DNA of 64,000 nt from an uncultured bacterium (GTDB lineage: Bacteria > Omnitrophota > Omnitrophia > Omnitrophales > Abzuiibacteriaceae), in NCBI GenBank assembly GCA_964387845.1, contig CAYLXA010000001.1:96001-160000 (forward strand), read 5' to 3'. The notes under the pieces were generated by a model, which ran no database searches, had not been told where the DNA came from, and saw only the letters and a list, made by a program, of their open reading frames with translations. This document shows positions 8,932 to 37,750 of the stretch, piece after piece. A program made the position numbers and the translations under genes. Position 1 is the stretch's first letter. Each line of letters begins with the position of its first letter.

Positions 8932-9035
8932 TGATGTTTTCGAGAAGATTCACGCACACCTCTTCCGCCCTAACTGATAAAGCTTCAGATAATCTAGTGA
9001 TTATAGGAGAGCTTGGAGAGCCCGTCAAGGAAGGT

Positions 9036-9809
9036 TTAAGAGCCTGATTTTGACTCAGTAGTAGCACACAAAAAGACCCCTTCCTCCTTTAAAAAAGCAT
9101 AAATGAGAGAGCAAGGCGAATAGAGGTCTTCTTCCAATCCCGCTGCCGGCTGGCGAGCTTCCGGATAGCCCAAACGGCGGAACCACCGCGCCGATCGGTC
9201 AGTCACGGCTGCATTGTGATACAGAAAAAGCTCCGGAAAAGCTTTTTTGGGTTTGAGCGCCACATGATGACGGCCAAATTCGATTTCCGGAATCCCATCC
9301 TGACTTTCCCTGCTAAGCCCGGATGCCGGCCGGAATGCAACGATCGGGCGAATTTCAAGCCGTACATAATCGCCGTAACTGGAAAGAAACTGATAACGAA
9401 TAAAAACCGTATGTTCATCCGGCATCATCACAATCGCTTTCATGAGCGCCCATTGATCGATTCGGTAAATCCAAATCGGATTCGGCGCGAGATAAAAGTT
9501 TTCTAAGTATTCATAGCCCTTTGGGTAAATCGTATCCGAATACAAATGCGTCGACAGAGGAAACGACTTATCGCCTACGTGCAGAGTTTCTTCCAGGTTG
9601 GACAAAAGGACAACGTCGCCGGATTTTCCTGCGGGGACAACAAGCAAGCCGTGGCTGCGTTTGGTGTTGGCGCCCAAAATAGTAGAAGAAGCATAACCGC
9701 CTAAATTATTGCCTTCCCTCCACTCTTTCTGGCTGGCAACATCAAAATCCCGGCAGATCTTGGTCCGGACAGAGGTAAATTTTCCGCTCGGCTTTAATTT
9801 TGGATCCAT
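9036..9809 (-). CDS. glycogen debranching enzyme N-terminal domain (GDE_N) protein; apparently truncated, with no amylo-1,6-glucosidase catalytic domain downstream
   Basis: The 257-aa product resembles the N-terminal domain of bacterial amylo-alpha-1,6-glucosidases. The ORF ends 104 nt before lpxL and there is no C-terminal domain. Confidence 0.55.
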   Translation of the reverse strand: MDPKLKPSGKFTSVRTKICRDFDVASQKEWREGNNLGGYASSTILGANTKRSHGLLVVPAGKSGDVVLLSNLEETLHVGDKSFPLSTHLYSDTIYPKGYEYLENFYLAPNPIWIYRIDQWALMKAIVMMPDEHTVFIRYQFLSSYGDYVRLEIRPIVAFRPASGLSRESQDGIPEIEFGRHHVALKPKKAFPELFLYHNAAVTDRSARWFRRLGYPEARQPAAGLEEDLYSPCSLIYAFLKEEGVFLCATTESKSGS

Positions 9810-9861
9810 GCGGAGAAGACTACACCATGAGAGACAGATAAAACAAGAGAAAAAGGTAAAA

Positions 9862-10506
9862 CTAGGAGGAGCGCGCTGCTTTGAGTGATTCCAGCTTTTG
9901 CTGGAACTTTTTCGCGCGTTCGGTCACTTCTGCCCAATTGTGCGCGCGGATTAATGACTTATCACAAATAGCACTTCCGATTTCAACCACATTAGCACCA
10001 ACTTTGAGATATTCCAAAAAATTATCGCAAGTCACGCCACCGGAAACCATCAGCCGTGTAATCGGCAGCGCACGTTTCAAACGCTTCGCGAAACTGGGGC
10101 CGCCCAATACATCAATCGGATATAAGTCGATGAGATCAACACCTGAATTAAAAGCATCCATCGCCTCCGTGGCAGTCGCGGCACTTTGAATGACGAACAC
10201 ATTATTGTTTTTACCGACTGTAAGAATAATTTTATCAACAAAGTGGCTCGAAATAAATTTAGCGCCGGCGTTGATTGCGCGCTGCGCCATTTCGCCGTCT
10301 GTGACGGAACTGGCGCCGATCAGGTCGCCGTTTTTGGAAAGCGTCTCGATCAGGCGCGGCGCTTGAGGCACCGACATGGAAATTTCGAGAACTTTGAAAC
10401 CGCCGGCAAGAGCCGCTTTGGCAAGCTGCGCGGCATCGTCATGTTCGCTGGCGCGGACATTTGCGATTAATTTATGATCATCCAGAATTTTGAATACGTC
10501 TTCCAA
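9862..10506 (-). CDS. eda: 2-dehydro-3-deoxyphosphogluconate / 4-hydroxy-2-oxoglutarate aldolase
   Basis: The 214-aa product has an Eda-family TIM barrel with the Schiff-base lysine context (GANVVEIGSA / FKVLEI). Confidence 0.8.
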   Translation of the reverse strand: MEDVFKILDDHKLIANVRASEHDDAAQLAKAALAGGFKVLEISMSVPQAPRLIETLSKNGDLIGASSVTDGEMAQRAINAGAKFISSHFVDKIILTVGKNNNVFVIQSAATATEAMDAFNSGVDLIDLYPIDVLGGPSFAKRLKRALPITRLMVSGGVTCDNFLEYLKVGANVVEIGSAICDKSLIRAHNWAEVTERAKKFQQKLESLKAARSS

Positions 10507-12610: not shown

Positions 12611-14704
12611 TCAATGAGGCTTAAAACCGGCTTTTCGGAGGCCCGCCTGAATTTCCGGATTCTTCATGAACAGCCGCCAAATAAGGCCTGTTCTGTAGTT
12701 TTCAATGGCCAACACAATTGGGCCTTGATCAAGGCCGAGGTGATGCTCGCTCACCCAATTTTGTTTGGGATTGAGCGCATCCTTAAATCCGTAGGGGCCC
12801 CAAACTTTTTCGCCGTACTGGTCTTTGATATATTTCATGGCTGCAATTGAAAGCGGCGGCGTAAACATAATGGAAGTCGCGGCAGCCGTCGGCGCAATCG
12901 TGCCGTCATTTAAAACCGGAACCGCAGAACCCATGGGCGGCGCACCGTACGCCTTGTAACCGCCTGGCCCTTCGGAGGCCGTCAAACCCCAAAGTTCCGG
13001 CGGATAATCATTGGCCCTCATCGAGAATTCACGGTTAGCAAACGTTGCTAGAATTGAATTTTCAAAATAATTAGCATAAGCGTCTCGAATTCCGCGGAAA
13101 TCAACCCATAAATGCGAATATTGATGGGTGAAAAGCGGCGCGCATGCAATCAGCTCATACGGGCCGTAACTGCTTTTCTGGTAAGTAGAAGCCCATGCTT
13201 TCCAGCTTTCAGCCGGAATTGCATTGGCTGGCGCGCCCAACGCCAACAGATAAACAATCATGGCTTCATTGTAGCCGCGCAATTCAAACGTATTCGGGCC
13301 ATTTTTCTTGGACCAATGCCACGGCAAAAGGCCGCGCTCATCTTCCGACCGTTCCCGCTTAAGCAGCGCATCCCAATGAATCCCTCTGTAAAATTCGTCC
13401 ACTTTATCGCGAAACGACTTTTCCTCCGCTGTCGGGCCGCTGAAATATTGCTTCGCGGTCAAGGCGCCTGCGAGAAAAAACGATGTTTCAACCGAATCTC
13501 CCATCTCGATTTCCCAGATTTCTTTGCGGCCGGGCCCAAGCCAGTGCGGCAGGAGGCCTTGATACCGGTTTAATTGGTAAAGCGCAACATCCATCATCCG
13601 GTTTAAACGCTTGAGAGCTTCCTCCCGGCTCATCCACTTACGCTCGACGCCAATGACATAAGCCGGCATTTGAAACCCGCTCAAACCTGTCGAAAAAACT
13701 TCGCCGCTTGAGTGACGATCCTTCACAAAATAGGATTGAGATTCTACTTCATTGACAAAATAATCGAACGTGCTCTTCTGAATTTCGTCGAGAAATTTGT
13801 CGAAATTAAAACGATTGCGAATGGCAATAAGGCTCACGGGGCCTTCACTGCGTTTGCCGTGCGGATCGACTGTTACGCCCCTCAACCAATATTTCCCGCC
13901 CAAAAATCCGCCGACCGGCCATTCATATTCGTACGTCAGTTTGCCCTCATCAGGAAAACCTGCAAGATAAAACCAATGCTTTTCATCCCATGAAGCTTCA
14001 AATCTAAATTCTTCAAATTCACCCTTCTTCGGAACGCGTGTCGAAAGTTTCAACTTCGTCGTTTCACCGACTTCATACGGCACTCTGAACGGAACATCGC
14101 CGTTAATCATCACCGCTCCGGGCTTCGGGAGGTCTGTCTTACCGGCTTTAGCTTCATCCAACTCGATAAATTCCAAATCATCAATGTAAAGCGTGCCCAG
14201 CCGCGGCGCAGTCCGGCCTTCTTCGAAGACAAAAACAAATTCGGTCAGATCGTCTTTTTTCAAATGCGAATGATTGGAAAGTTGTGATACAGGAACCGTG
14301 ATTTGTTTCCACGCATCGCGCTCCGACTTTTCAACCACAAAGCTGTGAATAGCATCATCTTTGAGTTCAATTTTGAATGCGGATTGGCTTCCTCGAATCC
14401 AAAACCGGATCGCATTGAATTGTGGCGGAATTTGATTCGGGTAAAATCTCAGGAACGTGCCGCCGTAACCCTCGCTCACGTTGTATTCGATGGCAAGCAC
14501 CGTGCCGCGCTCGGCATCTTTAACCAGATTTGACCTGACATAAGGCACGCGTGCATTCGGTTTCCCGCCGCCCGTAAAGTTACCGCGCTCCTCAATGATC
14601 TTGGTTTTAGACATGTCAAAACTGTCCACCAGATAAGCATGCAGATGCAAAGGAAAGACAAAGAGAATGGCGAAAGTCAGGACGTAGCTATAAAAACGAT
14701 TCAT
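12611..14704 (-). CDS. secreted glycoside-hydrolase-like protein (glucoamylase-like / DUF3131 / GH144-like C-terminal domain) with an N-terminal CBM-like domain
   Basis: The 697-aa product has a signal peptide and an N-terminal beta-sandwich-like region (YIDDLEF). The C-terminal region (LFTHQYSHLWVDFRG, WGLTASEGPGGY) resembles the (alpha/alpha)6 glucoamylase-like family. Confidence 0.55.
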   Translation of the reverse strand: MNRFYSYVLTFAILFVFPLHLHAYLVDSFDMSKTKIIEERGNFTGGGKPNARVPYVRSNLVKDAERGTVLAIEYNVSEGYGGTFLRFYPNQIPPQFNAIRFWIRGSQSAFKIELKDDAIHSFVVEKSERDAWKQITVPVSQLSNHSHLKKDDLTEFVFVFEEGRTAPRLGTLYIDDLEFIELDEAKAGKTDLPKPGAVMINGDVPFRVPYEVGETTKLKLSTRVPKKGEFEEFRFEASWDEKHWFYLAGFPDEGKLTYEYEWPVGGFLGGKYWLRGVTVDPHGKRSEGPVSLIAIRNRFNFDKFLDEIQKSTFDYFVNEVESQSYFVKDRHSSGEVFSTGLSGFQMPAYVIGVERKWMSREEALKRLNRMMDVALYQLNRYQGLLPHWLGPGRKEIWEIEMGDSVETSFFLAGALTAKQYFSGPTAEEKSFRDKVDEFYRGIHWDALLKRERSEDERGLLPWHWSKKNGPNTFELRGYNEAMIVYLLALGAPANAIPAESWKAWASTYQKSSYGPYELIACAPLFTHQYSHLWVDFRGIRDAYANYFENSILATFANREFSMRANDYPPELWGLTASEGPGGYKAYGAPPMGSAVPVLNDGTIAPTAAATSIMFTPPLSIAAMKYIKDQYGEKVWGPYGFKDALNPKQNWVSEHHLGLDQGPIVLAIENYRTGLIWRLFMKNPEIQAGLRKAGFKPH

Positions 14705-15542: not shown

Positions 15543-18221
15543 TTACCGGCTCGTTAAAATCGCGAGATTTTCCTGATACGCTTTAAGTTCTTTTGCGGCG
15601 TTTTCTTTCTTTGTTTTTTCGTCCTCCACCACTTCTTCCGGAGCGCGGGCAACAAAATTTTGATTGGAAAGTTTCTTGTCGATTGAATCGATGTAACGCG
15701 CAAGTTCGTCGATTTTCTTGCGAGTTTTGGTTTCGGCTACTTTCAAATCATCTTGCTTAATATCCGTCACAAAAATTTCCATACTCGCTGATGCGCGGCC
15801 CACCATGCCGGGCTTTTTAGAAATCTTTCCGGCATAACTAAGCTCGGCAACACGCGTTAAACGTTTAATGGAAGATTCAAGGTCCTTCAACAAACCCAGA
15901 TTGTCTTTCGAATCAGAAGTCACCGTAACGCGTGTGGACTTTTCGGTTGCGATGCCCAATAGCGACTGAAGGTCGCGAATGCCGGAAACCGCTTCTTGAA
16001 ATAATGCAAACTTCTCGGATTCGGAATTAAAAATGAATTTCTTCTCGGCGGCAGGCCAAACCGAAAGCATGACGGACGGTTCTTCAAAAAGCGGGGTTTT
16101 GATGAGGCTCTTCAGTTTCTGCCAGATTTCTTCAGTCACAAACGGCATAAAAGGATGCAAAAGCCTGAGCGATCGCTCTAAAACATAAACCAAAACCGAA
16201 CGCGTCGTCTCGGCGCGCGCTTCGCCTTCATCGCCCATAAACGCAGGCTTTGCGAGCTCCAAATACCAGTCGCAGAAAGAATGCCAGAAAAAGTGATAAA
16301 TTGCGGAAGCCGCGTCATTAAAGCGGAATTGCTCGATGTATTTTGTGATTTCCTGGATGGTTTTCTGAAGTTCGGTCAAAATCCACCGGTCCGTCACCGA
16401 AAGTTCGTTTTCCTGAATCCTAATTTCCTTCAAATGCATGACGTTTGTGAGCACAAAGCGCGAGGCGTTCCAGATTTTGTTCGTGAAATTGCGTCCAAGG
16501 TCAAATTTCTCCTTGGACAAATAAGCATCTTGCCCGCTAGCGGTGAGCATGATGACCGAAAACCTTAAGGCATCGGCGCCAATTTCATCAATCACGGTCA
16601 AAGGATCAATCGCGTTGCCGAGTGATTTGGACATTTTCTGGCCGGAATCGGTGCGGACAGTGCCGTGAATATAAATGCGCGAAAACGGCTCCTTGCCCAT
16701 AAAAAAGAGGCCAGCCATGATCATGCGCGCCACCCAGAAGAAAATAATTTCGGGCGCGGTCACGAGGACTGAAGTCGGATAGAAATATTTGAGGTCTTTT
16801 GTTTTCTCTGGCCAGCCAAGGGTTGAAAACGGCCAAAGCCAGGATGAAAACCAGGTATCGAGCATATCGGGATCGCGCTTTAATTTTGAAGAGCCGCATT
16901 CAGGGCAAAGTTTCGGATCTTCACGCGTGACAATCGGCTTTTTACATTTATTTTCACAATACCAAACCGGAATCTGATGCCCCCACCAAATTTGGCGGGA
17001 AATGCACCAATCGCGGATATTATCCAGCCAGCCCGAATAAACTTTATTCCAACGCTCCGGAAAAAACTGAGTTTTCCCTTCTTTGTGCGCGCGGATCGCT
17101 TTCTCCGCCAGAGGCTTCATCCGCACAAACCATTGTTTGGATAAATAAGGCTCGACCACTGTATCGCAGCGGTAACAATGCCCGACAGCGTGCTTGTGGG
17201 AAACACGTTTCACAAAAAGCCCGAGCGCTTCCAAATCATGGATGATCTTTTTGCGCGCTTCGAAGCGATCCAGATTTTTATAAGCGCCGCCCGCTTCATT
17301 GACGGTTCCGTTGGGGTTTAAGACATTAATGACCGGAATTTCGGGATGGCGCGATTGAAACGCAAAATCGTTCGGATCGTGCGCCGGCGTAATCTTCACG
17401 ATACCGGTTCCGAAATCCATATCGACAAATTCATCGGCAATTACGGGGATTTTGCGTTCAAGAAGCGGCAGGATCACCTGCCGACCAATTAATTTTTTGT
17501 AACGGTCATCGTTCGGATTAACCGCAACAGCCGTATCGCCGAGCATCGTCTCAGGGCGCGTGGTGGCAACCACCACATGTTCTTTTGGGTTGTCTGCGAG
17601 CGGATATTGAATGTGATAAAGCGCGCCTTCGGTTTCTTTATGCGCGGCTTCTTCATCCGAAAGCGCCGTTTGGCAGCGCGGGCACCAATTGATGATGTAA
17701 TCGCCTTGATAAATTAGATCCTTTTCATAAAGTGTGACGAATGACTCGCGCACCGCGCGCGAAAGGCCTTCATCCATCGTAAAGCGCTCACGCGACCAGT
17801 CGCAAGAAGCGCCGAGACGGCGCAGCTGCTTAACGATCGTAGAGCCGTGGTCTTCTTTCCATTTCCAAACTTCCTCAATAAACTTTTCGCGGCCAAGTGT
17901 ATGGCGTGATTTCCCTTCTTTGGCGAGTTTTTTTTCTACCACATTTTGCGTTGCGATACCGGCATGATCCACACCCGGAATCCAAAGTGTCGATTTTTCG
18001 CGCATGCGTTCAAAACGAATCAAAATATCTTGAATGGTGTTGTTTAAAGCGTGGCCCATATGCAGAATTCCGGTCACATTGGGCGGCGGGATTACAATGG
18101 TAAAACGTTGTTCGGGAGGAAGCGACTCGTTTATCTTCGGAGTGAAAAACCCGGACGACTCCCACGCCGTGTACCACTTGGATTCGACATCCTTGGGCTT
18201 ATATTGTGAAGGTAAATCCAT
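15543..18221 (-). CDS. valS: valine--tRNA ligase
   Basis: The 892-aa product has a HIGH motif (PPPNVTGILHMGHAL), KMSKS (KMSKSLGN) and a C-terminal coiled coil. Confidence 0.95.
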   Translation of the reverse strand: MDLPSQYKPKDVESKWYTAWESSGFFTPKINESLPPEQRFTIVIPPPNVTGILHMGHALNNTIQDILIRFERMREKSTLWIPGVDHAGIATQNVVEKKLAKEGKSRHTLGREKFIEEVWKWKEDHGSTIVKQLRRLGASCDWSRERFTMDEGLSRAVRESFVTLYEKDLIYQGDYIINWCPRCQTALSDEEAAHKETEGALYHIQYPLADNPKEHVVVATTRPETMLGDTAVAVNPNDDRYKKLIGRQVILPLLERKIPVIADEFVDMDFGTGIVKITPAHDPNDFAFQSRHPEIPVINVLNPNGTVNEAGGAYKNLDRFEARKKIIHDLEALGLFVKRVSHKHAVGHCYRCDTVVEPYLSKQWFVRMKPLAEKAIRAHKEGKTQFFPERWNKVYSGWLDNIRDWCISRQIWWGHQIPVWYCENKCKKPIVTREDPKLCPECGSSKLKRDPDMLDTWFSSWLWPFSTLGWPEKTKDLKYFYPTSVLVTAPEIIFFWVARMIMAGLFFMGKEPFSRIYIHGTVRTDSGQKMSKSLGNAIDPLTVIDEIGADALRFSVIMLTASGQDAYLSKEKFDLGRNFTNKIWNASRFVLTNVMHLKEIRIQENELSVTDRWILTELQKTIQEITKYIEQFRFNDAASAIYHFFWHSFCDWYLELAKPAFMGDEGEARAETTRSVLVYVLERSLRLLHPFMPFVTEEIWQKLKSLIKTPLFEEPSVMLSVWPAAEKKFIFNSESEKFALFQEAVSGIRDLQSLLGIATEKSTRVTVTSDSKDNLGLLKDLESSIKRLTRVAELSYAGKISKKPGMVGRASASMEIFVTDIKQDDLKVAETKTRKKIDELARYIDSIDKKLSNQNFVARAPEEVVEDEKTKKENAAKELKAYQENLAILTSR

Positions 18222-18228
18222 ATTTCAA

Positions 18229-18314
18229 AGTGGTAAGTTTTAAGTAGTAAGTTTTAAGTTTGAAAGATGAATCATGCGATGACAATTTTACTTATCACTT
18301 ATAACTTATCACTT
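18229..18314. repeat. GTGGTAAG-family palindromic repeat (a degenerate copy) 3' of the cimA-like gene
   Basis: The sequence 'aagtggtaagttttaagtagtaagttttaagtt ... acttatcacttataacttatcacttaaac' has imperfect inverted arms built from GTAAG/TTATCACTT units. Confidence 0.65.
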
Positions 18315-19872
18315 AAACCTTAAGTAATTTGTACTCGATGGCTTCCACAAGCGCTTGCCAGCTTGCTTCAATGACGTTTTCAGAAACGCCGACAGTAGAC
18401 CAAGAGCCCTTGTCATCCTGAAATTCAATGAATACGCGGACTTTCGCTGCCGTGCCTGCTTCGGAATTGACAACACGGACTTTGTAATCCGTAAGGTGAA
18501 TTTTTTCGACCACAGGGTAAAATTTTACAAGCGCTTTACGCAAAGCGTTATCAAGAGCGTTCACCGGACCGTCGCCCTGCGCGACGGTGTGTTCTACTTC
18601 ATCGCCGACTTTGATTTCAACGGTTGCTTCAGACGTTGCGCCGCCGCCGTTCACTTTCTCATCCAACACGCGCACTTTTTGCACTGTAAAAAGCTGCTTA
18701 TATTTTCCGGTTTCTTTTTTGATCAAAAGCTCAAAACTTGCCTCAGCGGCTTCAAATTGATAACCTTGGTTCTCTAAATTCTGGACTTTTTCTAAAATCG
18801 CGCGTGTCGCGGGCGTATCTTTTGTCAAACCCAAATGCATTTCAGCGGATTTGGCGAGCACATTGGATTTTCCGCTTAATTCCGATACCAAAAAGCGCGT
18901 ATGATTGCCGACAAGGCCCGGATTGATATGTTCGTATGTCTTGCGGTTTTTCATCATGGCATTGACGTGCACGCCGCCTTTGTGCGCAAACGCAGAACGT
19001 CCGGTGAACGGCTGGCTGCCGCGTACGGGCATATTGCAAACTTCCGACACAAAATGCGAAAGATCGGTCAATCCCTTCAATTTTTTTGGGCTCAAAACTT
19101 TAAACCCTAGCTTGAGCTGCAAGAGCGGAATGATTGTGGTCAAATTCGCGTTGCCGCAGCGTTCACCGTAACCGTTGATTGTTCCCTGCACTTGAACGGC
19201 ACCATGTTCGATCGCCGTAACAGAATTGGCAACCGCAAGGCCGTCATCGTTATGGACATGGATCCCGAGCGGGGTTTTCACGGTTTTCCGAACCCGTTTT
19301 ACCGCGATGGCCACTCGATGCGGGATTGATCCGCCGTTTGTATCACACAGGCAGATCAAATCGGCACCGGCTTTGGCAGCTGCTTTCAATGTTTCGAGCG
19401 CGTATTTTTGATTTTCCCGAAAACCGTCAAAAAAATGTTCGGCATCATAGATCACAAATTTCTTTTTTGACTTGAGATAACGCACGCTGTCTTCGATCAT
19501 CGCAAGATTCTCTTTCAGCGATGTTTTAAACACTTCGCGGACATGAAAATCCCAGCTTTTTCCGAAAATCGTAATCACCTTCGTGTCGGCCTCAAGCAAC
19601 AATTTGATTTGTTCGTCAGAAGAGACTTTGACTCCTGCGCGGCGCGTAGATCCGAACGCGGCGATTTTCGCGTGTTTCAATTTGAGCTTCTTGGCTTCTT
19701 TAAAAAACGCCAAGTCTTTCGGATTGGAGCCCGGCCATCCGCCTTCGATGAAGTCGATGCCGAACTGGTCAAAACGTTTCGCCAAGGTGAGTTTGTCGCT
19801 TAAAGACAAGCTCACGCCCTCGCCCTGCGTTCCGTCCCTTAAAGTTGTGTCGTAAATTTGAACTTTTTTCAT
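18313..19872 (-). CDS. citramalate synthase / 2-isopropylmalate synthase family (CimA-like)
   Basis: The 519-aa product has an HMGL-like TIM barrel (YDTTLRDGTQ, HVHNDDGLAVANS) plus a LeuA-dimer regulatory domain. Length and context favour citramalate synthase. Confidence 0.75.
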   Translation of the reverse strand: MKKVQIYDTTLRDGTQGEGVSLSLSDKLTLAKRFDQFGIDFIEGGWPGSNPKDLAFFKEAKKLKLKHAKIAAFGSTRRAGVKVSSDEQIKLLLEADTKVITIFGKSWDFHVREVFKTSLKENLAMIEDSVRYLKSKKKFVIYDAEHFFDGFRENQKYALETLKAAAKAGADLICLCDTNGGSIPHRVAIAVKRVRKTVKTPLGIHVHNDDGLAVANSVTAIEHGAVQVQGTINGYGERCGNANLTTIIPLLQLKLGFKVLSPKKLKGLTDLSHFVSEVCNMPVRGSQPFTGRSAFAHKGGVHVNAMMKNRKTYEHINPGLVGNHTRFLVSELSGKSNVLAKSAEMHLGLTKDTPATRAILEKVQNLENQGYQFEAAEASFELLIKKETGKYKQLFTVQKVRVLDEKVNGGGATSEATVEIKVGDEVEHTVAQGDGPVNALDNALRKALVKFYPVVEKIHLTDYKVRVVNSEAGTAAKVRVFIEFQDDKGSWSTVGVSENVIEASWQALVEAIEYKLLKV

Positions 19873-19874
19873 TT

Positions 19875-30900: not shown

Positions 30901-33900
30901 CGGTAAAATTTTTTCAACTTCGTCTGCGCCCGTCAATATAAGAATTTCTTCACGAATCTGAGAAGCGAGGATAATAATATTTTTCAAATGTCCTTCCATA
31001 TCCGGCGGCAAGGCTCTTTTCACCTGATCCTTACCTTGTTTGCCAACATTAAAAAGCGCTAAACGCCCCGCAACTGTCCGCTGTTCCATTTTGACAGCTC
31101 TCTGGATTGCTGCTTGCGATAAGCGCCCGCTTCTCCCACGCGGTAAAACCAGATAAGCGCCTAAAATGTGCTCATCATAAAGATCGTAAATCGCATCCCG
31201 GATACTTTTATCTTCGCGCATCAGCTTGAAAATAGTCCAACGGCTGGTATTTGCTTTTTTACTGATGGTGTCGATGGTAACACGCTGTTTCTGATTTTTC
31301 CGAAGCTGCTGAAGAACGGCAAGAATTCTGTTTTTAAAAAATTGACGTACGGCTTGGCGCGCAGTTCTGTCTCGCCTCACATAAAGAAGAAATTTCTTTT
31401 CTTCAATGCCTGCTAACCGGGCTAATTTTGTATAAGTGACATAGGTCTTTTTTTGTTTAGTTTCCAAATACTGAATTACCCCAACAACCCTTGCCCGAAG
31501 CATGGTGCGAACTGCCTTCGCGATACTTTTATTTCTCCGAATTCTGTTGAATAAGGTTTTGAGAGAAACGCCTGCTTCTTTTGCGATTTCTTGTTTCTCG
31601 AGAGAAAAGTTAGCCCTGCGCTCCAAAATTCTTTGAATTGCTTCTTTGATTCTTTGATCAAAAAATTGATCAACGATTTTACGGCTAGGCTTGAATTGTT
31701 TGAGGTGTTGCTTGTAAAATTCCAAACCCAAGCCTGCTCTAGAAGCGATGTCAGAATCTGTTACTTTGGTTTTCGCTTTCTTTTGATAGAAAGCAAGTGC
31801 TTCTTTAATTTTGCGAGCCACAAAACGATGAATGCCACTACGCAGCACTTTGCTATCTTTTAGAATACGAGGCAACGCTTGACGATGTGTTCCAAAAGCA
31901 TCCGCCAAGGTTTGTGCCGTGAGCAAATCTTTGGAGCTATTGAGCTTCCGCAAGACTTCCCTGATCTGAACTTTCCGGAAACTTCCGGTTTTTAAAACCT
32001 GCATGCGTTCTGCCAGTTCCGGATCGCGCCGAAGCTGTTTGGGCAATGCATGATTGTTAATCCAGGCTTTCTTCCGCACATTCTGCGGCGTTGCTTGAAG
32101 TCCTTCTCGGTTAAGATCACGGATTGCATTGAGAATTCTTCGTGAGAAAAATTGGTTAACGGCTTCTTGAACTGCCCGGTTTTGATTTGTACGGTTTTGA
32201 ACCACATCCAGCGAAAGCCGCGATTCCCTTGCGATCGTCATAAAGCTTGTTTTGGATTTCTGGCTTGGTTTCACGCGGCTTAGCTTTTGCAGTGCGTCGA
32301 GAATCTCCGAATCATAAAATTCATTCAAAGCAGCTTGAACATTGACGTCCGACCGGACCAATGCTTTGAAATCGGGAACGGACAAGCCTGCTAAACTTGC
32401 GATCGTGCGTGTATTTCGAACTGTTATAGACCAATCACTTCTCAAATGCCGAAGTACGGTGCCCAGTTGGTTTGGTTTTGCCCGCCGAAGTTCGCTGCGC
32501 CGCTCAGCGCGATGATTGGCCGAAAGCTCGGCCATTTCCATAAGGATGTCGCGCAATCCTTCTTTTTGCACGGAAAAAACGGCGTGCAGCCACTGGAAAT
32601 CTTTTTGTAATTGTAGTGTAAAACTGCTTCCCAAAATTAGTTCGGCTACTTGCTTTTTCGCGTTATGGCTGGAATGCTGTGCCTTGCTGGCCCAAGATTT
32701 TGTCCGCGGCGGATTTGTATTGGACAATCGATATAAATAGAAAGAAAAACGCCTGATTCCGCTCATTATTTGTTGGAAAGTTTCTGAACTTAATGAATAT
32801 GAGTCGGAATTCATTGTAAATTTCGCATATTCATCCCGGAATTTATCTGACAGAACAGCAAAATTGCCGCTCACCTCACGCAAAACGCTCTCGGCCTCGG
32901 GATAACGGCGGGCAAGATATTTCAAATTTGTTTCCACATCTTCTATCAAGCGGCTGCCAACCGCAAACAACAACTGATGGCGGATAACAAAAGAAATCCC
33001 GTCCGGCTGGCTAACAGCATGAGGTGAGACTAAATCAAGATCTTCGTGATTGCGGTGCTGGAATTTCATTCCAACCCGCTGATTGACATAAATTTCGGTT
33101 AATAAATCAAGCAACATTTCATATCCGGCTGATCCGAGAGACACTTGCCTCTCCAGCCGGTCTATAAAGCTATGCAAATGGTTAAACAGGACATCATTCA
33201 TATGAGAACGCCATTGGCGTGACTGCATCATCCACAACACCACCGGCAGAAGCTCGTCATATGTACTCTCAGACAACAATTCTCTGAATCGATTGGCTTC
33301 GCCAATAAGATTGATGATAGGCAAATGTCTTTTTGTCACATAATCTTTGATGCGTTTCTCTAGGATACTTTTGGTATTGTAGTGATCAATCGTGAGTTCA
33401 AAATCATTCCGCAGCTCGGAGCGGGCCGGGTCTTCATCTTTGAAATCTAAAGCCTCTACAGACTCATCACGCCGGATTTCTTGCTCAAATGGAGTGACAG
33501 GTTCGGCCTCCACTTTAGGCCTATGGATAGAGTCTGCGATACGCAAAACATTGACCTGCTTATTCATCGAATCGGTCAAAGTAACAGTGGCGGCAAGCCG
33601 GCCTGCATGCTGCCGGACTTGTTTTAAAACAAATATTTTCTTATCAAGGCGCCTGGCCTCGGTTTTACTCCCGCTTGTATACGTTTTTTTCACACCCGTT
33701 ACGAGATAATCAATATGGCCTTCCACGCGATTAACACGCACGATATCCAGCAACTGAATTTGCCGTAGCGGTTCAGGCAGAAAAATAGATCTTTCATCTT
33801 GGATAATCTGCGACACTTCCTGCATGAGCTGATCGAGGCTTTGTAAGGGCACTACTTCTTGTGTATAGGCGGTCCGGTTTACCACGCGCCACTTTCTTCG

Positions 33901-35817
33901 AAAAGTTTGAATCCGGTCTCTCAGAAGCCGAATTTCATGAAGCTTCTCGGTATTAATACTTGCTTCCAGATGACTCGGGTGCGCCTGCGTAATTGTGTGT
34001 TGAATGTCAGATTCCGGTTCAAGTGAAATGGGAGCCGTATCCCTTGATTCATCCACTTCATCCAGCATGCGGTTCATGAGCGCTTTCAGAGCGTCCGTAT
34101 TTCCCGCCGCTTGTTTAGTATCTCTCTTCCAACTTTCTCTGACGCGCGGATCAAGCACAAGCGGGCTCAAGATTGAAAACAACCTAGAAAGTAATTGAAA
34201 TAAAGTCGCAGGATCGGTTTGTTGCGCTATTTGCTCCCGCGTACCGGGGATCTTTGGCTGAAGGTCTGATAATTTCTTGAGACGGTCGCTGCTGCCTGAT
34301 AAGAACCGTCCCACCGCATCGGCCTGTTGGGCTTCCGACCTTTCTTCGGCATATCGAGGGCCAGTGTCTTTTGGAACTTCCACTCCAGCTTGTTGAGCCA
34401 ATCGATTCAGATAAGCTTTGCCTTCGCGCTCATCTCTCGCCTTCCGTAAGCGCTCATCTTCCGCGGCTTCACGTGCAATTCTCGCCTGGTCTTGTTGATG
34501 CTTAATGTCCTCCGGATCCGGGAGCTTTGGCCGTTCATCTTCCGCCCGCAATTCGGATGAGGCGCGGGATGTGTTGTCGGTTTCATTGGATATCTTTGAC
34601 CCGTCTGAGTTTGATTCTTTACGGCTGCCATCGAGGACAAAATTCAATTGGCCGCTCAAGAGATCATCGACTTGGACTTCTCCATTTCGCGGCGTACTGC
34701 TGGGATCAATGATCCGATAGACGAACCCCGGCATGAGCGGCACATCGGCATGCCGCTTATGTTTACCATCAGCGTGGCGAACCACAGAACCTACAATGAT
34801 TTTGTCAGCCGTTAAATCTGGATCTTGAAAAACATATGATACGTCTGCGGCAAAACGCTGCGATCTTCCGACCGTCAGAACGATATCGCCGGGCTCGAGT
34901 TGTGAGGCATTGTCGATCGGTTCTGCTGTAAATCCTTGAAGAACTGAGGCAATAAATGCCGAATCCATGGGAAGTGACGGACGATAAAATCGCTCGACCA
35001 GTGGTTCTATAATCGATTGTTTCCACAATGGAAGCTGGGACAACCATTCCTTGGGGTATCTTTGCGCAAGGTTTTTATAACCTTCCCCAATGCTTGTGTG
35101 GAGGCCAATTCCGCCAATTGTCATCGGTTCTCGCTGATTCTCATCTTGCCGCAGCTCAGAGCGGGCCGACTTCAAAAGCTCCAACACTTCTTTGATCAAC
35201 TCGCGGTCATTCTTCGGAGAGAGAGAACCTGATTGAATTTTTCTCCCGATGATACCAAATTCTGACATTCCGGCTTGCTTTTCCAAATCAAAAAAGACAC
35301 CCGCCATTTCTGGGCTGGCATCAAGGCTTTTTATTTTTCTGCTAGACTCGTGGCGACGAAGAAATCGGGTTGCTTCATCTACCAATCTCTTATCAACTAA
35401 TTTCTTTTGAGTTGTTGGGAGTGTCGAATCACCTAGATCATCCAAATAACCATAAGGATGCTCTGAAGGACGTATTGTCACATAACCAGGCTTCCATTTA
35501 CTCGGATCAAGCGGCCGACTCCGCAGTTCGGAGCGGGATTTTCTGGCTTCAAGCTTCAAGCTTCCAGCTCCAGGTTTAACTGCTTGTGGCTTGTAGCTTG
35601 CAGCTTGTGGCTTGATTGAAACTTGCCCACTCGCGGCAATTTGCGCACTGTAGGGAAGCTGAAGATTAACGTCTTTTCGGAGGCCGAGATTGAAATTAGA
35701 TTTGGTAAGCGATTCGAAGAGAATCGGGGCGTCGCCGTAAGCGACCGTACTGGTCGTTAAAACCGTTGCGACGAGAACAAGGCTAATAAATTTGAAGATA
35801 GAAGATTTTGCCGGCAA
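24964..35817 (-). CDS. giant multi-module protein (3617 aa) with 12 (R/K/S)SELR junction motifs; modules include an HExxH zinc metalloprotease, a calcineurin-like metallophosphatase, HTH-like tandem repeats, a glycosidase-like domain and internal signal-peptide-like segments
   Basis: The ORF is uninterrupted for 10,854 nt. It has an N-terminal signal peptide. Nearby genes terminate normally, so the standard genetic code applies. Confidence 0.85.
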   Translation of the reverse strand: MPAKSSIFKFISLVLVATVLTTSTVAYGDAPILFESLTKSNFNLGLRKDVNLQLPYSAQIAASGQVSIKPQAASYKPQAVKPGAGSLKLEARKSRSELRSRPLDPSKWKPGYVTIRPSEHPYGYLDDLGDSTLPTTQKKLVDKRLVDEATRFLRRHESSRKIKSLDASPEMAGVFFDLEKQAGMSEFGIIGRKIQSGSLSPKNDRELIKEVLELLKSARSELRQDENQREPMTIGGIGLHTSIGEGYKNLAQRYPKEWLSQLPLWKQSIIEPLVERFYRPSLPMDSAFIASVLQGFTAEPIDNASQLEPGDIVLTVGRSQRFAADVSYVFQDPDLTADKIIVGSVVRHADGKHKRHADVPLMPGFVYRIIDPSSTPRNGEVQVDDLLSGQLNFVLDGSRKESNSDGSKISNETDNTSRASSELRAEDERPKLPDPEDIKHQQDQARIAREAAEDERLRKARDEREGKAYLNRLAQQAGVEVPKDTGPRYAEERSEAQQADAVGRFLSGSSDRLKKLSDLQPKIPGTREQIAQQTDPATLFQLLSRLFSILSPLVLDPRVRESWKRDTKQAAGNTDALKALMNRMLDEVDESRDTAPISLEPESDIQHTITQAHPSHLEASINTEKLHEIRLLRDRIQTFRRKWRVVNRTAYTQEVVPLQSLDQLMQEVSQIIQDERSIFLPEPLRQIQLLDIVRVNRVEGHIDYLVTGVKKTYTSGSKTEARRLDKKIFVLKQVRQHAGRLAATVTLTDSMNKQVNVLRIADSIHRPKVEAEPVTPFEQEIRRDESVEALDFKDEDPARSELRNDFELTIDHYNTKSILEKRIKDYVTKRHLPIINLIGEANRFRELLSESTYDELLPVVLWMMQSRQWRSHMNDVLFNHLHSFIDRLERQVSLGSAGYEMLLDLLTEIYVNQRVGMKFQHRNHEDLDLVSPHAVSQPDGISFVIRHQLLFAVGSRLIEDVETNLKYLARRYPEAESVLREVSGNFAVLSDKFRDEYAKFTMNSDSYSLSSETFQQIMSGIRRFSFYLYRLSNTNPPRTKSWASKAQHSSHNAKKQVAELILGSSFTLQLQKDFQWLHAVFSVQKEGLRDILMEMAELSANHRAERRSELRRAKPNQLGTVLRHLRSDWSITVRNTRTIASLAGLSVPDFKALVRSDVNVQAALNEFYDSEILDALQKLSRVKPSQKSKTSFMTIARESRLSLDVVQNRTNQNRAVQEAVNQFFSRRILNAIRDLNREGLQATPQNVRKKAWINNHALPKQLRRDPELAERMQVLKTGSFRKVQIREVLRKLNSSKDLLTAQTLADAFGTHRQALPRILKDSKVLRSGIHRFVARKIKEALAFYQKKAKTKVTDSDIASRAGLGLEFYKQHLKQFKPSRKIVDQFFDQRIKEAIQRILERRANFSLEKQEIAKEAGVSLKTLFNRIRRNKSIAKAVRTMLRARVVGVIQYLETKQKKTYVTYTKLARLAGIEEKKFLLYVRRDRTARQAVRQFFKNRILAVLQQLRKNQKQRVTIDTISKKANTSRWTIFKLMREDKSIRDAIYDLYDEHILGAYLVLPRGRSGRLSQAAIQRAVKMEQRTVAGRLALFNVGKQGKDQVKRALPPDMEGHLKNIIILASQIREEILILTGADEVEKILPKIRDLAAKERALQIPKEKSRAVGLLEYLRTQLGVVNLDYVISDETIHVEREPRGDFAKDADREPVRLFLSSRSELRSNRGKKIPSAVVSILLSIGAASLSGCGFYLLNPFAMFFPAPAPMTREDPRTMLKEWLAMGYATIVVHGREIKIADQGFPEQPYNQLNSGERASLEHYLNALPARLTKDLKVIATVPSQAIPGLNGLSLDSSTFILFTQPALFMSGSKTINERFFVVHDGVSETGKPASSRLVTLNLQGTVMHEMAHGIQNAASSAAKNYYENLYQQSLGDRDNFVSNYATTDYREDFSDTFMYWVQDPDTLFARAIRNAQNGKPLLLRKLFFVLHYFADRNGMNVWVNAVTEFGGITPGYWNIQVLENGGFQVGPFSFQTNSDGQVTNFQMSGPFGIAEQGDFPEPVDSLLVRFFKSSAWSIAVENKRLDDSRARSLNNPHLPRYLPVEEFTRLTGINPFQQLERDYFALITSNGDRIVYIKFDNGLFPNQRPEIQIHLYQKIKNGYGFITTQAYRRDVPFNGTAVPEDFGLNRIHFPEPEIRLNSNLKNSILLPWPARSELRGFFDDRSPQFYTIAMGVALAVAGLSYGWLTLLQAEFTEITRIRGFESISDVIGAEDLRRRMIISMIALTASSSLAIVYAFSAVKAWIASNRKQPKPAIKNEPAESIRPLTTLRALKRSELRQQDGLSRREFTGRFLGAVAAFLGLGSSVFAGPKQDSKSQKKKVKKPKAEKLNYDAFRKAQIERMLGYLKPGVGVDPKSGYAYDGLKGNEARKWTQPTIIGFQVEILAHQAAGDVPGRESAGHAKEALETLDRLLKQLLQDQQKFGRQVAPRGNTGLIPWFKLEPAVQADSTLIAYVDNANLTVSMMTAIGSLIRAKKKHPELSETIDQTIVQARQFLKVQEAGMGYTKMIGFQNGLLRGEVFAGEQGWRPDAYHIDRLFAEHGPKTALLTTYFIKLVPQVFTNLKPVFKLYKFRDGKERLVAAPWNGGAFQMGWAVPYVMKNKRFKIVYENFLKAAMDYAYQNGLPGFLSESVDPATEKYEGKIGFPFHETDEPTNYTISSLYGLDGFSLLAPKTILNWRASILKQLNKLAGPYGNFESATADGQVSKIYVGNHHLSSILGLIGKQSESIQVFLEAEGLTEKYNAFLDQVQLPEEAVKPFDIKFTKPPKLKRSELREESDKPEDIPLEGYALEGVSPDQVMTILKAGGKALRESYAESERKWLGDDPGALAEIAGVNSVAVFGDLHGATGNFTKRFEELGKEAFLQNPKNHIVAIGDYLHTIDEKKARNKKAYLESLRTLLILLQLKIKYPKQVHLLPGNHDYAHAGGTRPGKFDTDQTGQLENAIEDFVNAGPESASGLDSNTVYNFLLNYLAYVIRQMPIVLTIADKSKAKHRLAFVHAGPNQSYTSKEQVNEIKILHGTIDDVLWDRFYEPEFLEQFLSTLESEYLISGHTPPTDFEEADLYDAETHTAFINDHHIIIDSSRKSGMLLVRFKNSKAFQSSEKFIRAFAKPVEASPRSELRNISRTERRRAGKINAIKAKQSEDFPELLGKLRRRFNNINQFVGETRTNISSVDKEKLAQILEAKGIKTKAPEFLRKLGDKLTDLLLISDVEKHYQARYSEIPKLPESKDMIDRLTIEHLDRLNIQLGMLLNDMRAELIRSWRLMQQVQEKRSLLEERVQTVAAKSELRISITDINTELLGGADAKQVERVVVEEIRKIPDFTTQDAFKGEVSLLDRPFDLVMQRSSDAADTFDFRVVAKRKVKDAEPVARPNEVIAALGSLSTTVLTSEIFGKLKSLIEQSIKTDVDSTSFALKEAAANVVNLSLSDLSNTQIALAISGKTLRDESENNLTQALFWIANSLDQKVVIVDDTPFSKGIVKIVNDWLSEDKQIEVMPPYWSRVEDKLHEKGFTQIKVILAPGESLLRSYEGFDVSYAQNVTELLSVAGVSNIITAQVRSELRIAQMA

Positions 35818-35930
35818 AGTGGTTTAGCCTGCTTTCTTAAAAAGTGTTTAAATAGTACCATTTTACACCTAATATGGCAAGTTTATGACCCAATATTTAA
35901 TAATTACAGATAAAAATAGAAGGAAAATTA

Positions 35931-35990
35931 GTGGTAAGTGGTAAGCGATAAGTTGTTCGAATAACTTAAAACTTACCACTTAAAACTAGA
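35931..35990. repeat. GTGGTAAG-family palindromic repeat with a TTCGAA apex, 3' of the ferredoxin gene
   Basis: The sequence 'agtggtaagtggtaagcgataagttgttcgaataacttaaaacttaccacttaaaac' is a near-perfect hairpin. Confidence 0.75.
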
Positions 35991-36221
35991 TCAGCCATCA
36001 CTACCGATGGCTTCGACGGGACATTCTGTAATGGCTTGCTCGCAGCGCTCGCGTTCTTGATCGTTCGCGGGCTGCTTGTGGACATAGCTGTAACCGCTTT
36101 GCTCGTTGCGCTCAAAATTGGCGGGTGCCGTTTGACGGCAAAGATCGCAGTCAATGCACTGCGTATCAACATAAAAAGCGCCTTCAACGTTTCCTAGATG
36201 TTTATGATCTTTGTTAGCCAT
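35991..36221 (-). CDS. ferredoxin (single [3Fe-4S]/[4Fe-4S] cluster type)
   Basis: The 76-aa product has CIDCDLC...CP cluster ligands, a Cys-x2-Asp-x2-Cys...Cys-Pro pattern. Confidence 0.8.
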   Translation of the reverse strand: MANKDHKHLGNVEGAFYVDTQCIDCDLCRQTAPANFERNEQSGYSYVHKQPANDQERERCEQAITECPVEAIGSDG

Positions 36222-36355
36222 TTTCTTTTAAATTCAAATATCAAATTTCAAAATCTAAAACAAATTCTAAATTCAAATGTTTCAATACAGCTGTTTTGAA
36301 TTTAAGGATTTGGTTATTTGAAATTATTTTGAATTTTGATATTTGATATTTGAAT
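36222..36355. promoter_or_regulatory. AT-rich intergenic region with long imperfect inverted repeats (caaat/atttg units) between the fumarase gene (upstream) and the ferredoxin gene (downstream)
   Basis: The arm 'aaattcaaatatcaaatttcaaaat' pairs with 'attttgaattttgatatttgatatttgaattt'. A central small palindrome 'acagctgt' is also present. The region is a likely terminator or promoter. Confidence 0.4.
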
Positions 36356-37750
36356 TTACTTCTGTTTTGGGGTTGTCAATTCCTTGGGGGATAAAATTTT
36401 GTCGAGTTCGTCCTTGCTTAACAACTTTTTTTCTAAAATGATTTGCCGCATGGTTTTGCCGGTCTTCACGGATTCTTTCACTACCTCCGCCGCTTTGCTG
36501 TAACCGATATAAGGATTAAGCGCCGCCGCAATGCCGTAACTCTCTTCCGCATATTTTGAGCAGACTTCTTTGTTCGCCGTAATGCCGTCAATGCACATTT
36601 CTGCCAATGCCGAGCATGTGTTCTTTAAAATCTCTATCGATTGCAGCAAATTATGAATCACGGTCGGGATCATGACGTTGAGTTCCAGCTGCCCCGCTTG
36701 TGTCGCCATGGAAATCGCGGTGTCGTTGCCGATGACTTGAAAACAAACGATTGTCGTCATCTCGGGCATCACCGGATTGATCTTCCCCGGCATAATGGAA
36801 GAACCCGGCTGGCGCGCCGGCAATACAATTTCGTTAAAACCGGTCTTGGGACCTGAACTCAAGAGACGCAGATCGTTACAAATTTGGATTAAAACAAGCG
36901 CCAAGGTTTTCAACTCACCCGAAACCGCGCTGAAGTCAGAGGTGCTCTGCATTTTCTCGAAAAGATTTTTCGCAGAACGAAATTTAAATCCCGTAATTTC
37001 ACCAAGATTGGCAACTAGATCATTGCGATATTGAACGGTGGTGTTAAGTCCTGTTCCAACGGCCGAGCCGCCGATTCCCAAATCCAACAGATAATCCGAA
37101 ACATGCTTCACGCGATCAATGCAATTTTGAACGTTGCCGGCGTAGCCGCTAAACTCCTGGCCGAGTGTAATCGGCGCGGCATCCTGCATGTGCGTGCGGC
37201 CGGATTTCACAACATCCGTAAATTCCTTAGACTTTTTCTCGAGGGATTTCACCAATTTCTGAGCTGCCGGATAAAATTCGCCGAGTAGTTTCGTCACCGC
37301 CACCCGGAGTGCTGCAGGCATGACATCGTTGGTGGATTGGCCCATATTCACGTGATCATGCGAATGAACTTTTTTGTAATCGCCTTTTTCGTGGCCCAGG
37401 ATTTCGAGCGCGCGGTTCGTGATCACTTCATTTGTGTTCATGTGCTGCGAAACACCGGCACCCGACTGAAACACATCCACCGGAAATTCCTTGGCCAGCT
37501 TGCCGGCCATCACCTCTTCGGAAGCTTTGACGATGGCATCGCCGATTTTTTTATCGAGCGCACCGCGTTTCATGTTGGCTTTGGCAGCCGCGATTTTAAT
37601 GGCGGCAGTTGCCCATACAAATACGGGATGAAAACGAAGGCCTGAGATCGGGTAATTTTCGATAGCGCGCGCGGTTTCGGCGCCATAATAAACTTCAGAG
37701 GGAACTTGAAATTCTCCTAGCGAATCTTTTTCGGTCCGGGTTTTGGGCAT
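36356..37750 (-). CDS. class II fumarate hydratase / aspartate ammonia-lyase family enzyme (FumC-like)
   Basis: The 464-aa product has the GSSIMPGKINPV signature of the fumarase/aspartase superfamily. The neighbouring kor genes favour fumarase. Confidence 0.8.
   Translation of the reverse strand: MPKTRTEKDSLGEFQVPSEVYYGAETARAIENYPISGLRFHPVFVWATAAIKIAAAKANMKRGALDKKIGDAIVKASEEVMAGKLAKEFPVDVFQSGAGVSQHMNTNEVITNRALEILGHEKGDYKKVHSHDHVNMGQSTNDVMPAALRVAVTKLLGEFYPAAQKLVKSLEKKSKEFTDVVKSGRTHMQDAAPITLGQEFSGYAGNVQNCIDRVKHVSDYLLDLGIGGSAVGTGLNTTVQYRNDLVANLGEITGFKFRSAKNLFEKMQSTSDFSAVSGELKTLALVLIQICNDLRLLSSGPKTGFNEIVLPARQPGSSIMPGKINPVMPEMTTIVCFQVIGNDTAISMATQAGQLELNVMIPTVIHNLLQSIEILKNTCSALAEMCIDGITANKEVCSKYAEESYGIAAALNPYIGYSKAAEVVKESVKTGKTMRQIILEKKLLSKDELDKILSPKELTTPKQK

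Follow-up and report, generated by a model that had tools for sequence, protein, structure and literature searches.

A 64,000-nt stretch of one Omnitrophota genome (hereafter the window) carries four intergenic elements at the 3' ends of genes, each built of short repeated units in inverted arms. This raises the question of what the elements are, how they came to lie next to stop codons, and whether they act there as bidirectional transcription terminators, as a first-pass annotation of the window had suggested. We favour, with moderate confidence, the joint best explanation that the four elements are one family of dispersed intergenic palindromes, the Omnitrophota member of the inverted heptanucleotide-repeat arrays. 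What is new is the family, the phylum and the stop-containing core; the kind itself is already known and poorly understood. The phylum was assigned from the protein encoded by cimA in the window, whose best public match is 96% identical at the amino acid level and whose named matches, at 79% identity and below, are Candidatus Omnitrophica. The four elements are the following:

18227..18325, no strand: element 1, with a left array at 18228-18261, a 28-nt loop and a right array at 18290-18322, taking up the whole gap between cimA and valS
21104..21184, no strand: element 2, with a left array at 21107-21137 and a right array at 21152-21183, taking up the whole gap between apgM and the aspartate kinase gene
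24862..24960, no strand: element 3, with a left array at 24863-24908 (6-7 units), the apex TTCGAA at 24911-24916 and a right array at 24920-24957
35928..35990, no strand: element 4, with a left array at 35930-35953, the apex TTCGAA at 35956-35961 and a right array at 35963-35988

All four were found where the first-pass annotation had placed them, including the TTCGAA apices of two of them, and small corrections were needed: the right end of element 1 is at 18322-18325, and the element covers the cimA stop codon (18313-18315) plus the last cimA codons, while the start of element 3 is at 24862/24863. With a length of 60-99 nt and a GC content of 26-37%, the elements have a common layout, in which a left array of 3-7 degenerate heptamers (TKNTAAG) is followed by a short loop (12-32 nt between the arms) and an inverted right array. 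The shared units recognized earlier (GTGGTAAG, GTAAGT and TTTTAAGTT) are real, but their strict spacing had not been stated: TAAG recurs at a 7-nt step in 3-6 exact copies per left arm and CTTA in 3-5 copies per right arm, and nowhere else in the 64 kb. Array periodicity was called with Tandem Repeats Finder, which gave a period of 7 (or 14/21) in all eight arms. The logo of 39 units reads T(29/39)-K-N-T(36)-A(37)-A(39)-G(39), and the units TGGTAAG and TTTTAAG are present in all four elements. In element 1, for example, the left units are TGGTAAG, TTTTAAG, TAGTAAG and TTTTAAG, and the right units are ACTTATC, ACTTATA, ACTTATC, ACTTAAA and CCTTAAG; the left arm of element 2 consists of 2.2 copies of a perfect 14-mer (AGTGGTAAGGGATA), and its right arm of a different heptamer, (AACTTAC) x4.6.

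A chance origin of the heptamer arrays is excluded. Three TAAG in phase (TAAGNNNTAAGNNNTAAG, both strands) match 18 times in the window, compared with 0.00 times in 100 dinucleotide-preserving shuffles, and all 18 matches are within the elements; likewise, GTGGTAAG matches 10 times, with 0.51 matches expected, and all 10 are within the four elements. As the first-pass annotation had expected, the arms fold, and they do so on both strands for all four elements, with RNA minimum free energies (MFE) of -21 to -40 kcal/mol and z scores of -2.7 to -6.8 against shuffles. The values are -21.2 on the mRNA strand and -24.1 on the plus strand for element 1, -22.8/-24.3 for element 2, -37.7/-40.2 (z -5.7/-6.8) for element 3 and -25.3/-25.5 (z -6.6/-6.3) for element 4. 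The stems are imperfect, with small internal loops at the variable positions, every 7 nt. A CRISPR array had been dismissed before, correctly in our view, as the units are 7 nt long, contiguous and inverted, and not identical 24-48-nt direct repeats with unique spacers of similar length. A known non-coding RNA or riboswitch was also rejected, as Rfam 15 at the gathering score gives a single tRNA in the whole window, and the sub-threshold Rfam hits that fall on the elements match miRNA-precursor hairpins by chance.

That the elements belong together is indicated not only by the shared units but also by the relationship of elements 3 and 4. Element 3 and the reverse complement of element 4 are identical at 49 of 53 positions without a gap (47 of 58 in direct orientation), and this match takes in the TTCGAA loop and asymmetric inner units, TTTTAAG on one side and CGATAAG on the other. 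Because inverted copies match this closely, the sequence has moved or been copied between the two sites, which agrees with the earlier description of the elements as a repeat family. Element 4 is identical in an independent assembly, the Logan contig L206 (SRR15237813), which at 10 kb is the second sequence available for this strain and is 100% identical to positions 25991-36259 of the window.

Comparison with loci of relatives (L201-L205, L223-L225 and others) showed that the elements are DNA-level gains or losses since the split from the closest congener. This congener (L201-L203), the relative with the 96% cimA match, has the same gene order at about 82% nucleotide identity (77-87%). Its cimA-valS spacer measures 20 nt, versus 91 nt in the window, and its spacer between apgM and the aspartate kinase gene 9 nt, versus 86 nt. 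At the third junction, the congener has the stop codon of a giant open reading frame (ORF), 5 nt and the -35 hexamer of the hom promoter, and the window has a clean insertion of about 96 nt at this place (TAA plus 5 nt, then CTTGCATTTT). No target-site duplication or duplicated flank was found at this clean site of element 3 in the comparison with L201, and at elements 1 and 2 the junctions have diverged too far for a judgement; a miniature inverted-repeat transposable element (MITE) was rejected because a target-site duplication is missing at the one clean insertion. A possible leftover of the ancestral cimA-valS spacer (CGCAT..CATC) was seen by eye in the loop of element 1; it is too weak to use and does not recur at the other sites.

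At the junctions compared in other genomes of the lineage, the family was not found: the corresponding junctions of the congener are empty, L225 has no element at any junction, and L204 and L205 (11548-11808), from a CG11-like Omnitrophica of another genus, carry a different heptamer at the cimA-valS junction, namely inverted TTAAGAA/TGAAGAG arrays around a centre of about 170 nt (in one of the two assemblies, a 43-aa ORF is called in this centre). In L223 (4305-4400) and L224 (11570-11640), GTAG-headed, GC-rich palindromes (TTGTAGGGGCG-N-CGCCCC) that look like classical repetitive extragenic palindromic (REP) sequences are located just 3' of cimA; valS follows cimA in L224 only, where the palindrome is in the cimA-valS gap, and not in L223. 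As different lineages carry different palindromic repeats at this place, the elements are evolutionarily labile and the spacer 3' of cimA is permissive. L224 also contains a structured MITE-like element of about 150-200 nt (...CACAGCTGTATTCTCAGCAGTGCCGCACGAACTTCGCGGCATTCCCATTGGAAATTC...), which is repeated 3' of valS and 3' of dinB (14320-14700 and 15790-16400).

The gene context of the elements, together with a fifth hairpin overlooked by the first-pass annotation, is as follows:

15543..18221, minus strand: valS, valine-tRNA ligase, downstream of element 1
18313..19872, minus strand: cimA, citramalate synthase (TIGR00977, 765 bits), upstream of element 1
19875..21098, minus strand: aspartate kinase gene, downstream of element 2
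21185..22387, minus strand: apgM, cofactor-independent phosphoglycerate mutase or proposed homoserine kinase, upstream of element 2
23526..24803, minus strand: hom, homoserine dehydrogenase, downstream of element 3
24964..35817, minus strand: giant ORF of 3617 aa with a signal peptide-like N-terminus and one Metallophos domain; element 4 is upstream and element 3 downstream of it
35991..36221, minus strand: 4Fe-4S ferredoxin gene, 76 aa, between elements 5 and 4
36229..36358, no strand: element 5, (AWWTCAA)n...(TTGAWWT)n, taking up the whole gap between aspA and the ferredoxin gene

The genes between 657 and 47964 all lie on the minus strand; around the elements they are transcribed in the order aspA, element 5, ferredoxin, element 4, giant ORF, element 3, hom, thrC, apgM, element 2, aspartate kinase, cimA, element 1, valS. 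Element 5 also has a period of 7 (ATTTTGA x4.6) and folds with an MFE of -36.4/-37.6 (z -7.4/-6.5). Since it uses a different heptamer, at least two unit families share this architecture within the one genome. Elements 1, 2 and 5 occupy their entire gap, with the upstream stop codon in or at the base of the stem and the next start codon 8, 5 and 8 nt past it, respectively. The cimA stop TAA is one of the heptamer TAAs, in the phase of the array, and the valS ATG (18221) is 8 nt past the stem of element 1; the apgM stop TAG (21185-21187) is 1-2 nt from the array of element 2, and the aspartate kinase ATG (21098) is 5 nt from its stem; the aspA stop TAA (36356-36358) is at the stem base of element 5, 8 nt from whose stem the ferredoxin ATG (36221) is located. 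The starts of valS and aspartate kinase are confirmed by alignment with the relative. Elements 3 and 4 are situated in longer spacers and are nevertheless close to the stop: the giant-ORF stop TAA (24964-24966) is 3-6 nt from the array of element 3, with the next start 58 nt away, and the array of element 4 comes within 0-2 nt of the ferredoxin stop TGA (35991-35993), with the next start about 110 nt away.

The architecture is not restricted to the window. Searching metagenomes for three in-phase TAAG, 8-38 nt and three in-phase CTTA matched TAAG-heptamer hairpins in at least 120 contigs of 30-72% GC, in flavours such as TAAGCTG, TAAGAAT/TAAGAGT, TAAGTGG, TAAGCCG and others. One abundant flavour belongs to Prevotellaceae and a 72%-GC example to Gemmatimonadales, so that together with the window at least three phyla are represented; arrays of the GTGGTAAG type were likewise seen in contigs of 38-66% GC that are unrelated to the window. 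The supposed lineage specificity thus applies to this sequence family and not to the TAAG-core architecture. In the cimA loci of 80 other genomes (1.3 Mb), TAAG-type arrays were absent; heptamer hairpins with other cores were found among the cimA loci in Nitrospirota, candidate division FCPU426 and others. Viral contigs contained 12 TAAG-first sites and 20 CTTA-first sites, the latter being a separate CTTAGNN/NNCTAAG family with TAG in the first arm; the 64%-GC viral contig L220 (IMG/VR UViG_3300040758_000286) has seven CTTAGNN...NNCTAAG hairpins in 11 kb (1930-10483), about one per one or two genes, and the viral contigs L217, L218 and L222 are similar. Among the metagenome matches listed, 126 were TAAG-first and one was CTTA-first (a simple CTTAAGC repeat); a universal preference for TAAG in the first arm was nevertheless rejected on account of the viral CTTA-first sites, although these are of a different family. 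A very uniform family, AATTAAGAATTAAGAGTTAAGAATTAAGAAAA-loop-TTTTCTTAATTCTTAACTCTTAATT, was seen in L112 (4225-4312), L119, L081, L090, L153 and about 12 further loci, at least one of them from gut Prevotellaceae (Marseilla massiliensis / Prevotella sp. CAG:1124); its variable loops often begin with AAAATATGC.

Placement and arm statistics were obtained for 130 TAAG hairpins among the matches listed (126 metagenome loci and the four elements of the window), and they uphold the link to gene 3' ends that had been proposed from the window. None of the 130 is inside an ORF; 62 lie between co-directional, 26 between convergent and four between divergent genes (convergent versus divergent, binomial p=6e-5). 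The co-directional hairpins are at a median distance of 3 nt from the upstream stop and of 13.5 nt from the next start, the latter being an underestimate because the longest ORF was used. About one third of the stops are inside the first units, in register (-3, -10, -17). Part of this placement arises by construction, as TAA recurs every 7 nt and whichever frame enters an arm meets a stop within three units; element 5 and several hairpins with other cores have no stops in the first arm. Stop proximity is also largely explained by insertion into spacers merely 5-20 nt long. However, the position of elements 3 and 4 in their longer spacers and the depletion between divergent genes indicate a real bias to the stop-proximal side.

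The arms themselves change by slippage of 7 or 14 nt, each independently of the other. In the 130 listed hairpins, arm-to-arm identity at the variable positions is 0.60 within a hairpin versus 0.32 between hairpins, and it is still 0.58 when the order of the units is shuffled within an arm. A strict mirror symmetry of the arms was rejected because the difference between 0.60 and 0.58 is marginal; the arms share the flavour of their units and barely the order, which fits slippage and homogenization.

Several known systems resemble the elements in part. REP sequences and the bacterial interspersed mosaic elements composed of them are dispersed extragenic imperfect palindromes, often found between co-transcribed genes and at 3' ends; their transcribed stem-loops protect the upstream mRNA, they vary among relatives, lack target-site duplications and are mobilized by REP-associated tyrosine transposases (RAYT). 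A genome usually has tens to hundreds of REPs, and its RAYT gene typically has REPs on its flanks. The comparison with REP made by the first-pass annotation is apt in that the elements, too, are dispersed intergenic palindromes. In contrast to these 60-99-nt, AT-rich elements, REPs are 20-40 nt long and GC-rich, with a GTAG-type head and no tandem heptamers. The Correia elements of Neisseria, MITEs of 100-155 bp that have 26-bp repeats at their ends and duplicate TA, and the single-copy, conserved intercistronic RNase III sites of phage T7 are likewise long imperfect intercistronic hairpins that are processed or stabilize the upstream message. Neither is made of heptamer arrays. The viral contig L220, with about one heptamer hairpin per one or two genes, belongs to the points of resemblance.

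The closest counterparts are the GGGAATC-type repeats of Xanthomonas campestris and X. axonopodis, heterogeneous (GGGANTN)n arrays of mostly about four units (Rehm et al. 2015, PMC4692102). Each genome contains 70-75 inverted pairs of such arrays in convergent orientation on opposite strands that can form stem-loops; about 90% of the arrays are intergenic, at an average of 28 nt to the upstream ORF versus 160 nt to the downstream ORF, few are found between divergent ORFs, and related species differ in the lengths of the repeats and in the sites they occupy (PMC4692102). The elements share with them heptamers with 4-5 conserved positions, closely spaced opposed arrays, stop-proximal placement and rarity between divergent ORFs. 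They differ in that the Xanthomonas core is G-rich and was studied for G-quadruplex formation, whereas here it is AT-rich with a TAA stop, almost every array is paired, and the phylum is another one. No GGG runs or G-tracts were found in the units TGGTAAG, TTTTAAG and CGATAAG; G-tracts are thus a trait of the Xanthomonas family and not part of the architecture. In Geobacter metallireducens, the 'putative global regulator binding sites' include arrays of five tandem heptanucleotides (MTYCTGA) as one class; all four site classes are described as 'mostly found in pairs' and drawn as looping between strands (Aklujkar et al. 2009, PMC2700814). These resemble the elements as multicopy, paired tandem heptamers and differ in unit sequence and in their interpretation as DNA regulator sites; the passages of that paper dealing with them contain no analysis of array position relative to stop codons (PMC2700814). 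A further group is formed by the direct TAACTGA heptamers of Beggiatoaceae, cyanobacteria and Bacteroidetes, intergenic sets of 2-6 copies that, in forward orientation, close all three reading frames and may reach into the end of the upstream ORF, with 169 direct sets versus one inverted set in the BOGUAY genome (MacGregor 2015, PMC4679880). Like the elements, these and the cyanobacterial short tandemly repeated repetitive (STRR) heptanucleotides have stop-containing units and often end a few nucleotides before the next start, but they are nearly all direct, oriented towards the downstream start, and form no hairpins. No paper in the literature library searched has the exact unit strings, and for Omnitrophica repeats or heptamer stem-loops the closest papers found were those on Xanthomonas, Geobacter and Beggiatoaceae.

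How might a family of dispersed palindromes persist in such narrow spacers? Judging from the empty sites of the congener, a near-perfect palindrome in a tiny intercistronic spacer would be nearly harmless and would therefore be retained; if its stem extrudes, the stop and the next start would come to stand side by side, as they do in the empty sites. With a TAA in each 7-nt unit, as read from the sequence, the arrays would provide three-frame stops for ribosomes entering from either side. Once transcribed, the imperfect stem-loop of 25-40 bp at the end of the upstream cistron might form a barrier to 3'-to-5' exonucleases, and might perhaps serve as an RNase III site or as a weak attenuator. 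Such a REP-like role at the RNA level, that of a 3' stem-loop, we infer by analogy with REP, Correia and T7 intercistronic hairpins.

A number of observations weigh against an explanation by dispersal and retained function. No transposase, Y1_Tnp domain or RAYT was found in the 41 scanned ORFs of the window, which at 64 kb is a small part of the genome, and since no duplication exists at the one clean site, the word 'mobile' is unproven. The similarity of elements 3 and 4 could also be explained by gene conversion between the two sites. Just four copies are in view, all within 18 kb, and dispersal leaves the 7-nt step unexplained. Signs of selection on the transcribed strand were looked for in the 62 co-directional hairpins listed and none was found: the sense strand folded better in 32 and the antisense strand in 29 (p=0.65), with 126 versus 117 G-U pairs. 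As the strands are equal, selection specific to the RNA strand, in the form of more G-U pairs or a lower sense MFE, was rejected. Finally, the congener has the same operon and does without the elements, which makes any function dispensable.

These points lead to the alternative that survives best, namely that the elements are neutral mutational by-products, in which 7-nt slippage is seeded at a stop codon and a template switch subsequently makes the inverted arm. We regard this as possible and rather improbable. It accounts well for the variable presence among congeners, the independent expansion of arms by 7 or 14 nt, the cimA stop in array phase and the folding without strand asymmetry, and it is also in line with the occurrence of different heptamers in the same architecture, both within a single genome (element 5) and, in another genus, at the corresponding junction (L204); moreover, earlier work has described heptamer simple repeats as over-represented in bacteria (cited in PMC4679880 and PMC4692102). 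However, an independent origin in place does not explain why separate sites have identical variable positions (the shared TGGTAAG and TTTTAAG units, and the match of elements 3 and 4 including the loop). In addition, the stop-proximal bias persists in the long spacers of elements 3 and 4, and the scarcity of hairpins between divergent genes suggests some constraint or targeting.

A terminator function, the proposal of the first-pass annotation, would mean that the elements are dedicated, possibly bidirectional devices that stop RNA polymerase at the ends of units; in the light of the operon structure this is doubtful, and we consider it unlikely. Elements 3 and 4 would be well placed for it, as each fits precisely into the stretch from a stop codon to the promoter that follows. 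The hom promoter, whose -35 hexamer (ATGCAA on the plus strand, 24856-24861; -10 at 24833-24838) directly adjoins element 3, reads TTGCAT-N17-TATACT, with hexamers that are conserved in the congener while its spacer has diverged; element 4 is upstream of a promoter-like site of the giant ORF, TTGCCA-N17-TACTAT (35880-35852). Both elements are followed by moderately T-rich sequence on the mRNA strand. Canonical terminators are not in excess in the window (31 versus 26.4 in shuffles), so that termination may be left to something else, and the depletion of the listed hairpins between divergent genes would also be in keeping with termination. In contrast, elements 1, 2 and 5 are operon-internal and end 5-8 nt short of the starts of valS, aspartate kinase and ferredoxin, too close for a promoter to fit in, and an efficient stop there would silence mostly essential genes. 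Their tails are TTTGAAAT, TTGAA and AAAAGAAA, each followed by ATG. Among the matches listed, no more than 11 of 112 hairpins carry 6 or more T within the 10 nt that follow the stem, with a mean of 3.3 T versus 2.5 expected from composition, and the stems are rich in AT and interrupted by an internal loop at each 7-nt step; on the grounds of such stems and the few U-tails, canonical Rho-independent terminators were rejected as a general explanation, and the elements are probably not of this type. Folding is equal on both strands, and the congener lacks elements at the same junctions, the boundary between the giant ORF and hom included.

A more far-reaching interpretation is that inverted heptamer-array hairpins constitute one widespread, unnamed class of prokaryotic and phage 'punctuation', generated by a common 7-nt-step mechanism (a property of the replisome or a dedicated enzyme) and kept because three-frame stops on both strands and a processable stem-loop would insulate cistrons in translation, mRNA decay and possibly transcription. 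Although this seems improbable to us at present, it would fit the occurrence of TAAG-core hairpins in Omnitrophota, Prevotellaceae and Gemmatimonadales, of CTTAG/CTAAG cores in GC-rich viral contigs (up to 7 per 11 kb) and of other cores in Nitrospirota and FCPU426. Independent, neutral origins are compatible with the same evidence. Binding sites for a protein reading one unit per monomer, either on DNA (a global regulator or nucleoid protein) or on single-stranded RNA (a cold-shock-type protein with an oligonucleotide-binding fold), in two opposed arrays, are very improbable: the near-invariance of four of seven positions (TAAG) and the loose pairing of the variable ones look more like a constraint on sequence than on structure, the TAAG core is retained in the 72%-GC Gemmatimonadales contig, heptanucleotide arrays are read as global-regulator sites in the Geobacter passages (PMC2700814), and CspB binds heptamer repeats with one protein per unit (reviewed in PMC4679880), but the TAAG conservation in metagenomes arises by construction, since the pattern required TAAG, no candidate protein is known, other cores have the same architecture in the same genome (element 5), the absence from the congener operon leaves no conserved regulon apparent, and the elements are located after genes and not in promoter regions.

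The window contains further structures. A GC-rich hairpin at 23473-23525 (CCCTCACCCCACCCTCTCCCTCAGGGAGGGGG...GGGTGAGGG; MFE -35.8, z -4.2), overlooked by the first-pass annotation, is located in the gap between hom and thrC, two genes that overlap (TAATG) in the congener. The hairpin is followed by AAGTTTGAGGAT with the GAGGA Shine-Dalgarno sequence of thrC, which resembles the 3' end of hom in the congener (AAGTGTTGAGGAT), as if the junction had been duplicated. The six intergenic hairpins, five of the heptamer type and one GC-rich, are all within 18 kb (18000-36400), and no hairpin was seen in some 15 gaps of 25 nt or more in the rest of the window; new hairpin copies may arise near existing ones. 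The giant ORF, flanked in the window by inverted copies of one hairpin (elements 4 and 3), stands between ferredoxin and hom in the window and the closest congener; in L225 (cimA identity 79%; 4897-6478) ferredoxin is followed directly by hom, so that the 10.9-kb giant ORF is a lineage-specific insertion. Its interior contains, also previously overlooked, coding-strand arrays at 35546-35614, (CAAGCYR)x5...(TTGAAGC)x3, corresponding to about amino acids 68-92 (IKPQAASYKPQAVKPGAGSLKLEA), where a weak hairpin is possible (MFE -24, z -2.0); by resemblance to the Rickettsia palindromic elements, this may be an in-frame insertion of a heptamer hairpin. Two other intergenic regions are structured, 62618-62743 (66% GC, MFE -67 over 141 nt) and 59922-60207 (MFE -104 over 301 nt), the latter beside a tRNA at 59726-59799; Rfam gives no match for either of the two, even at E<=1.

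The elements also leave their mark on assemblies. The contig L206 starts inside an arm of element 5, and its other end, calculated from its size, is about 70 nt past the giant-ORF stop, within element 3; as both ends fall in elements, short-read assemblies seem to break at heptamer hairpins. Many Logan contigs of the Prevotellaceae hairpin locus are about 4.05 kb.

The few nucleotides between the genes of a compact operon can thus be quickly remodelled: the order hom-thrC-apgM-aspartate kinase-cimA-valS is common to two congeners, and four of six junctions differ by a 50-100-nt hairpin between the two genomes. For the annotation of uncultured Omnitrophota, such hairpins explain oddly 'long' spacers, stop codons supplied by a repeat, and contig breaks. 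Beyond this phylum, the elements draw attention to an under-described regularity across phyla and viral contigs, which consists of a 7-nt step, a conserved 4-nt core often containing a stop, inverted arms and a stop-proximal position.

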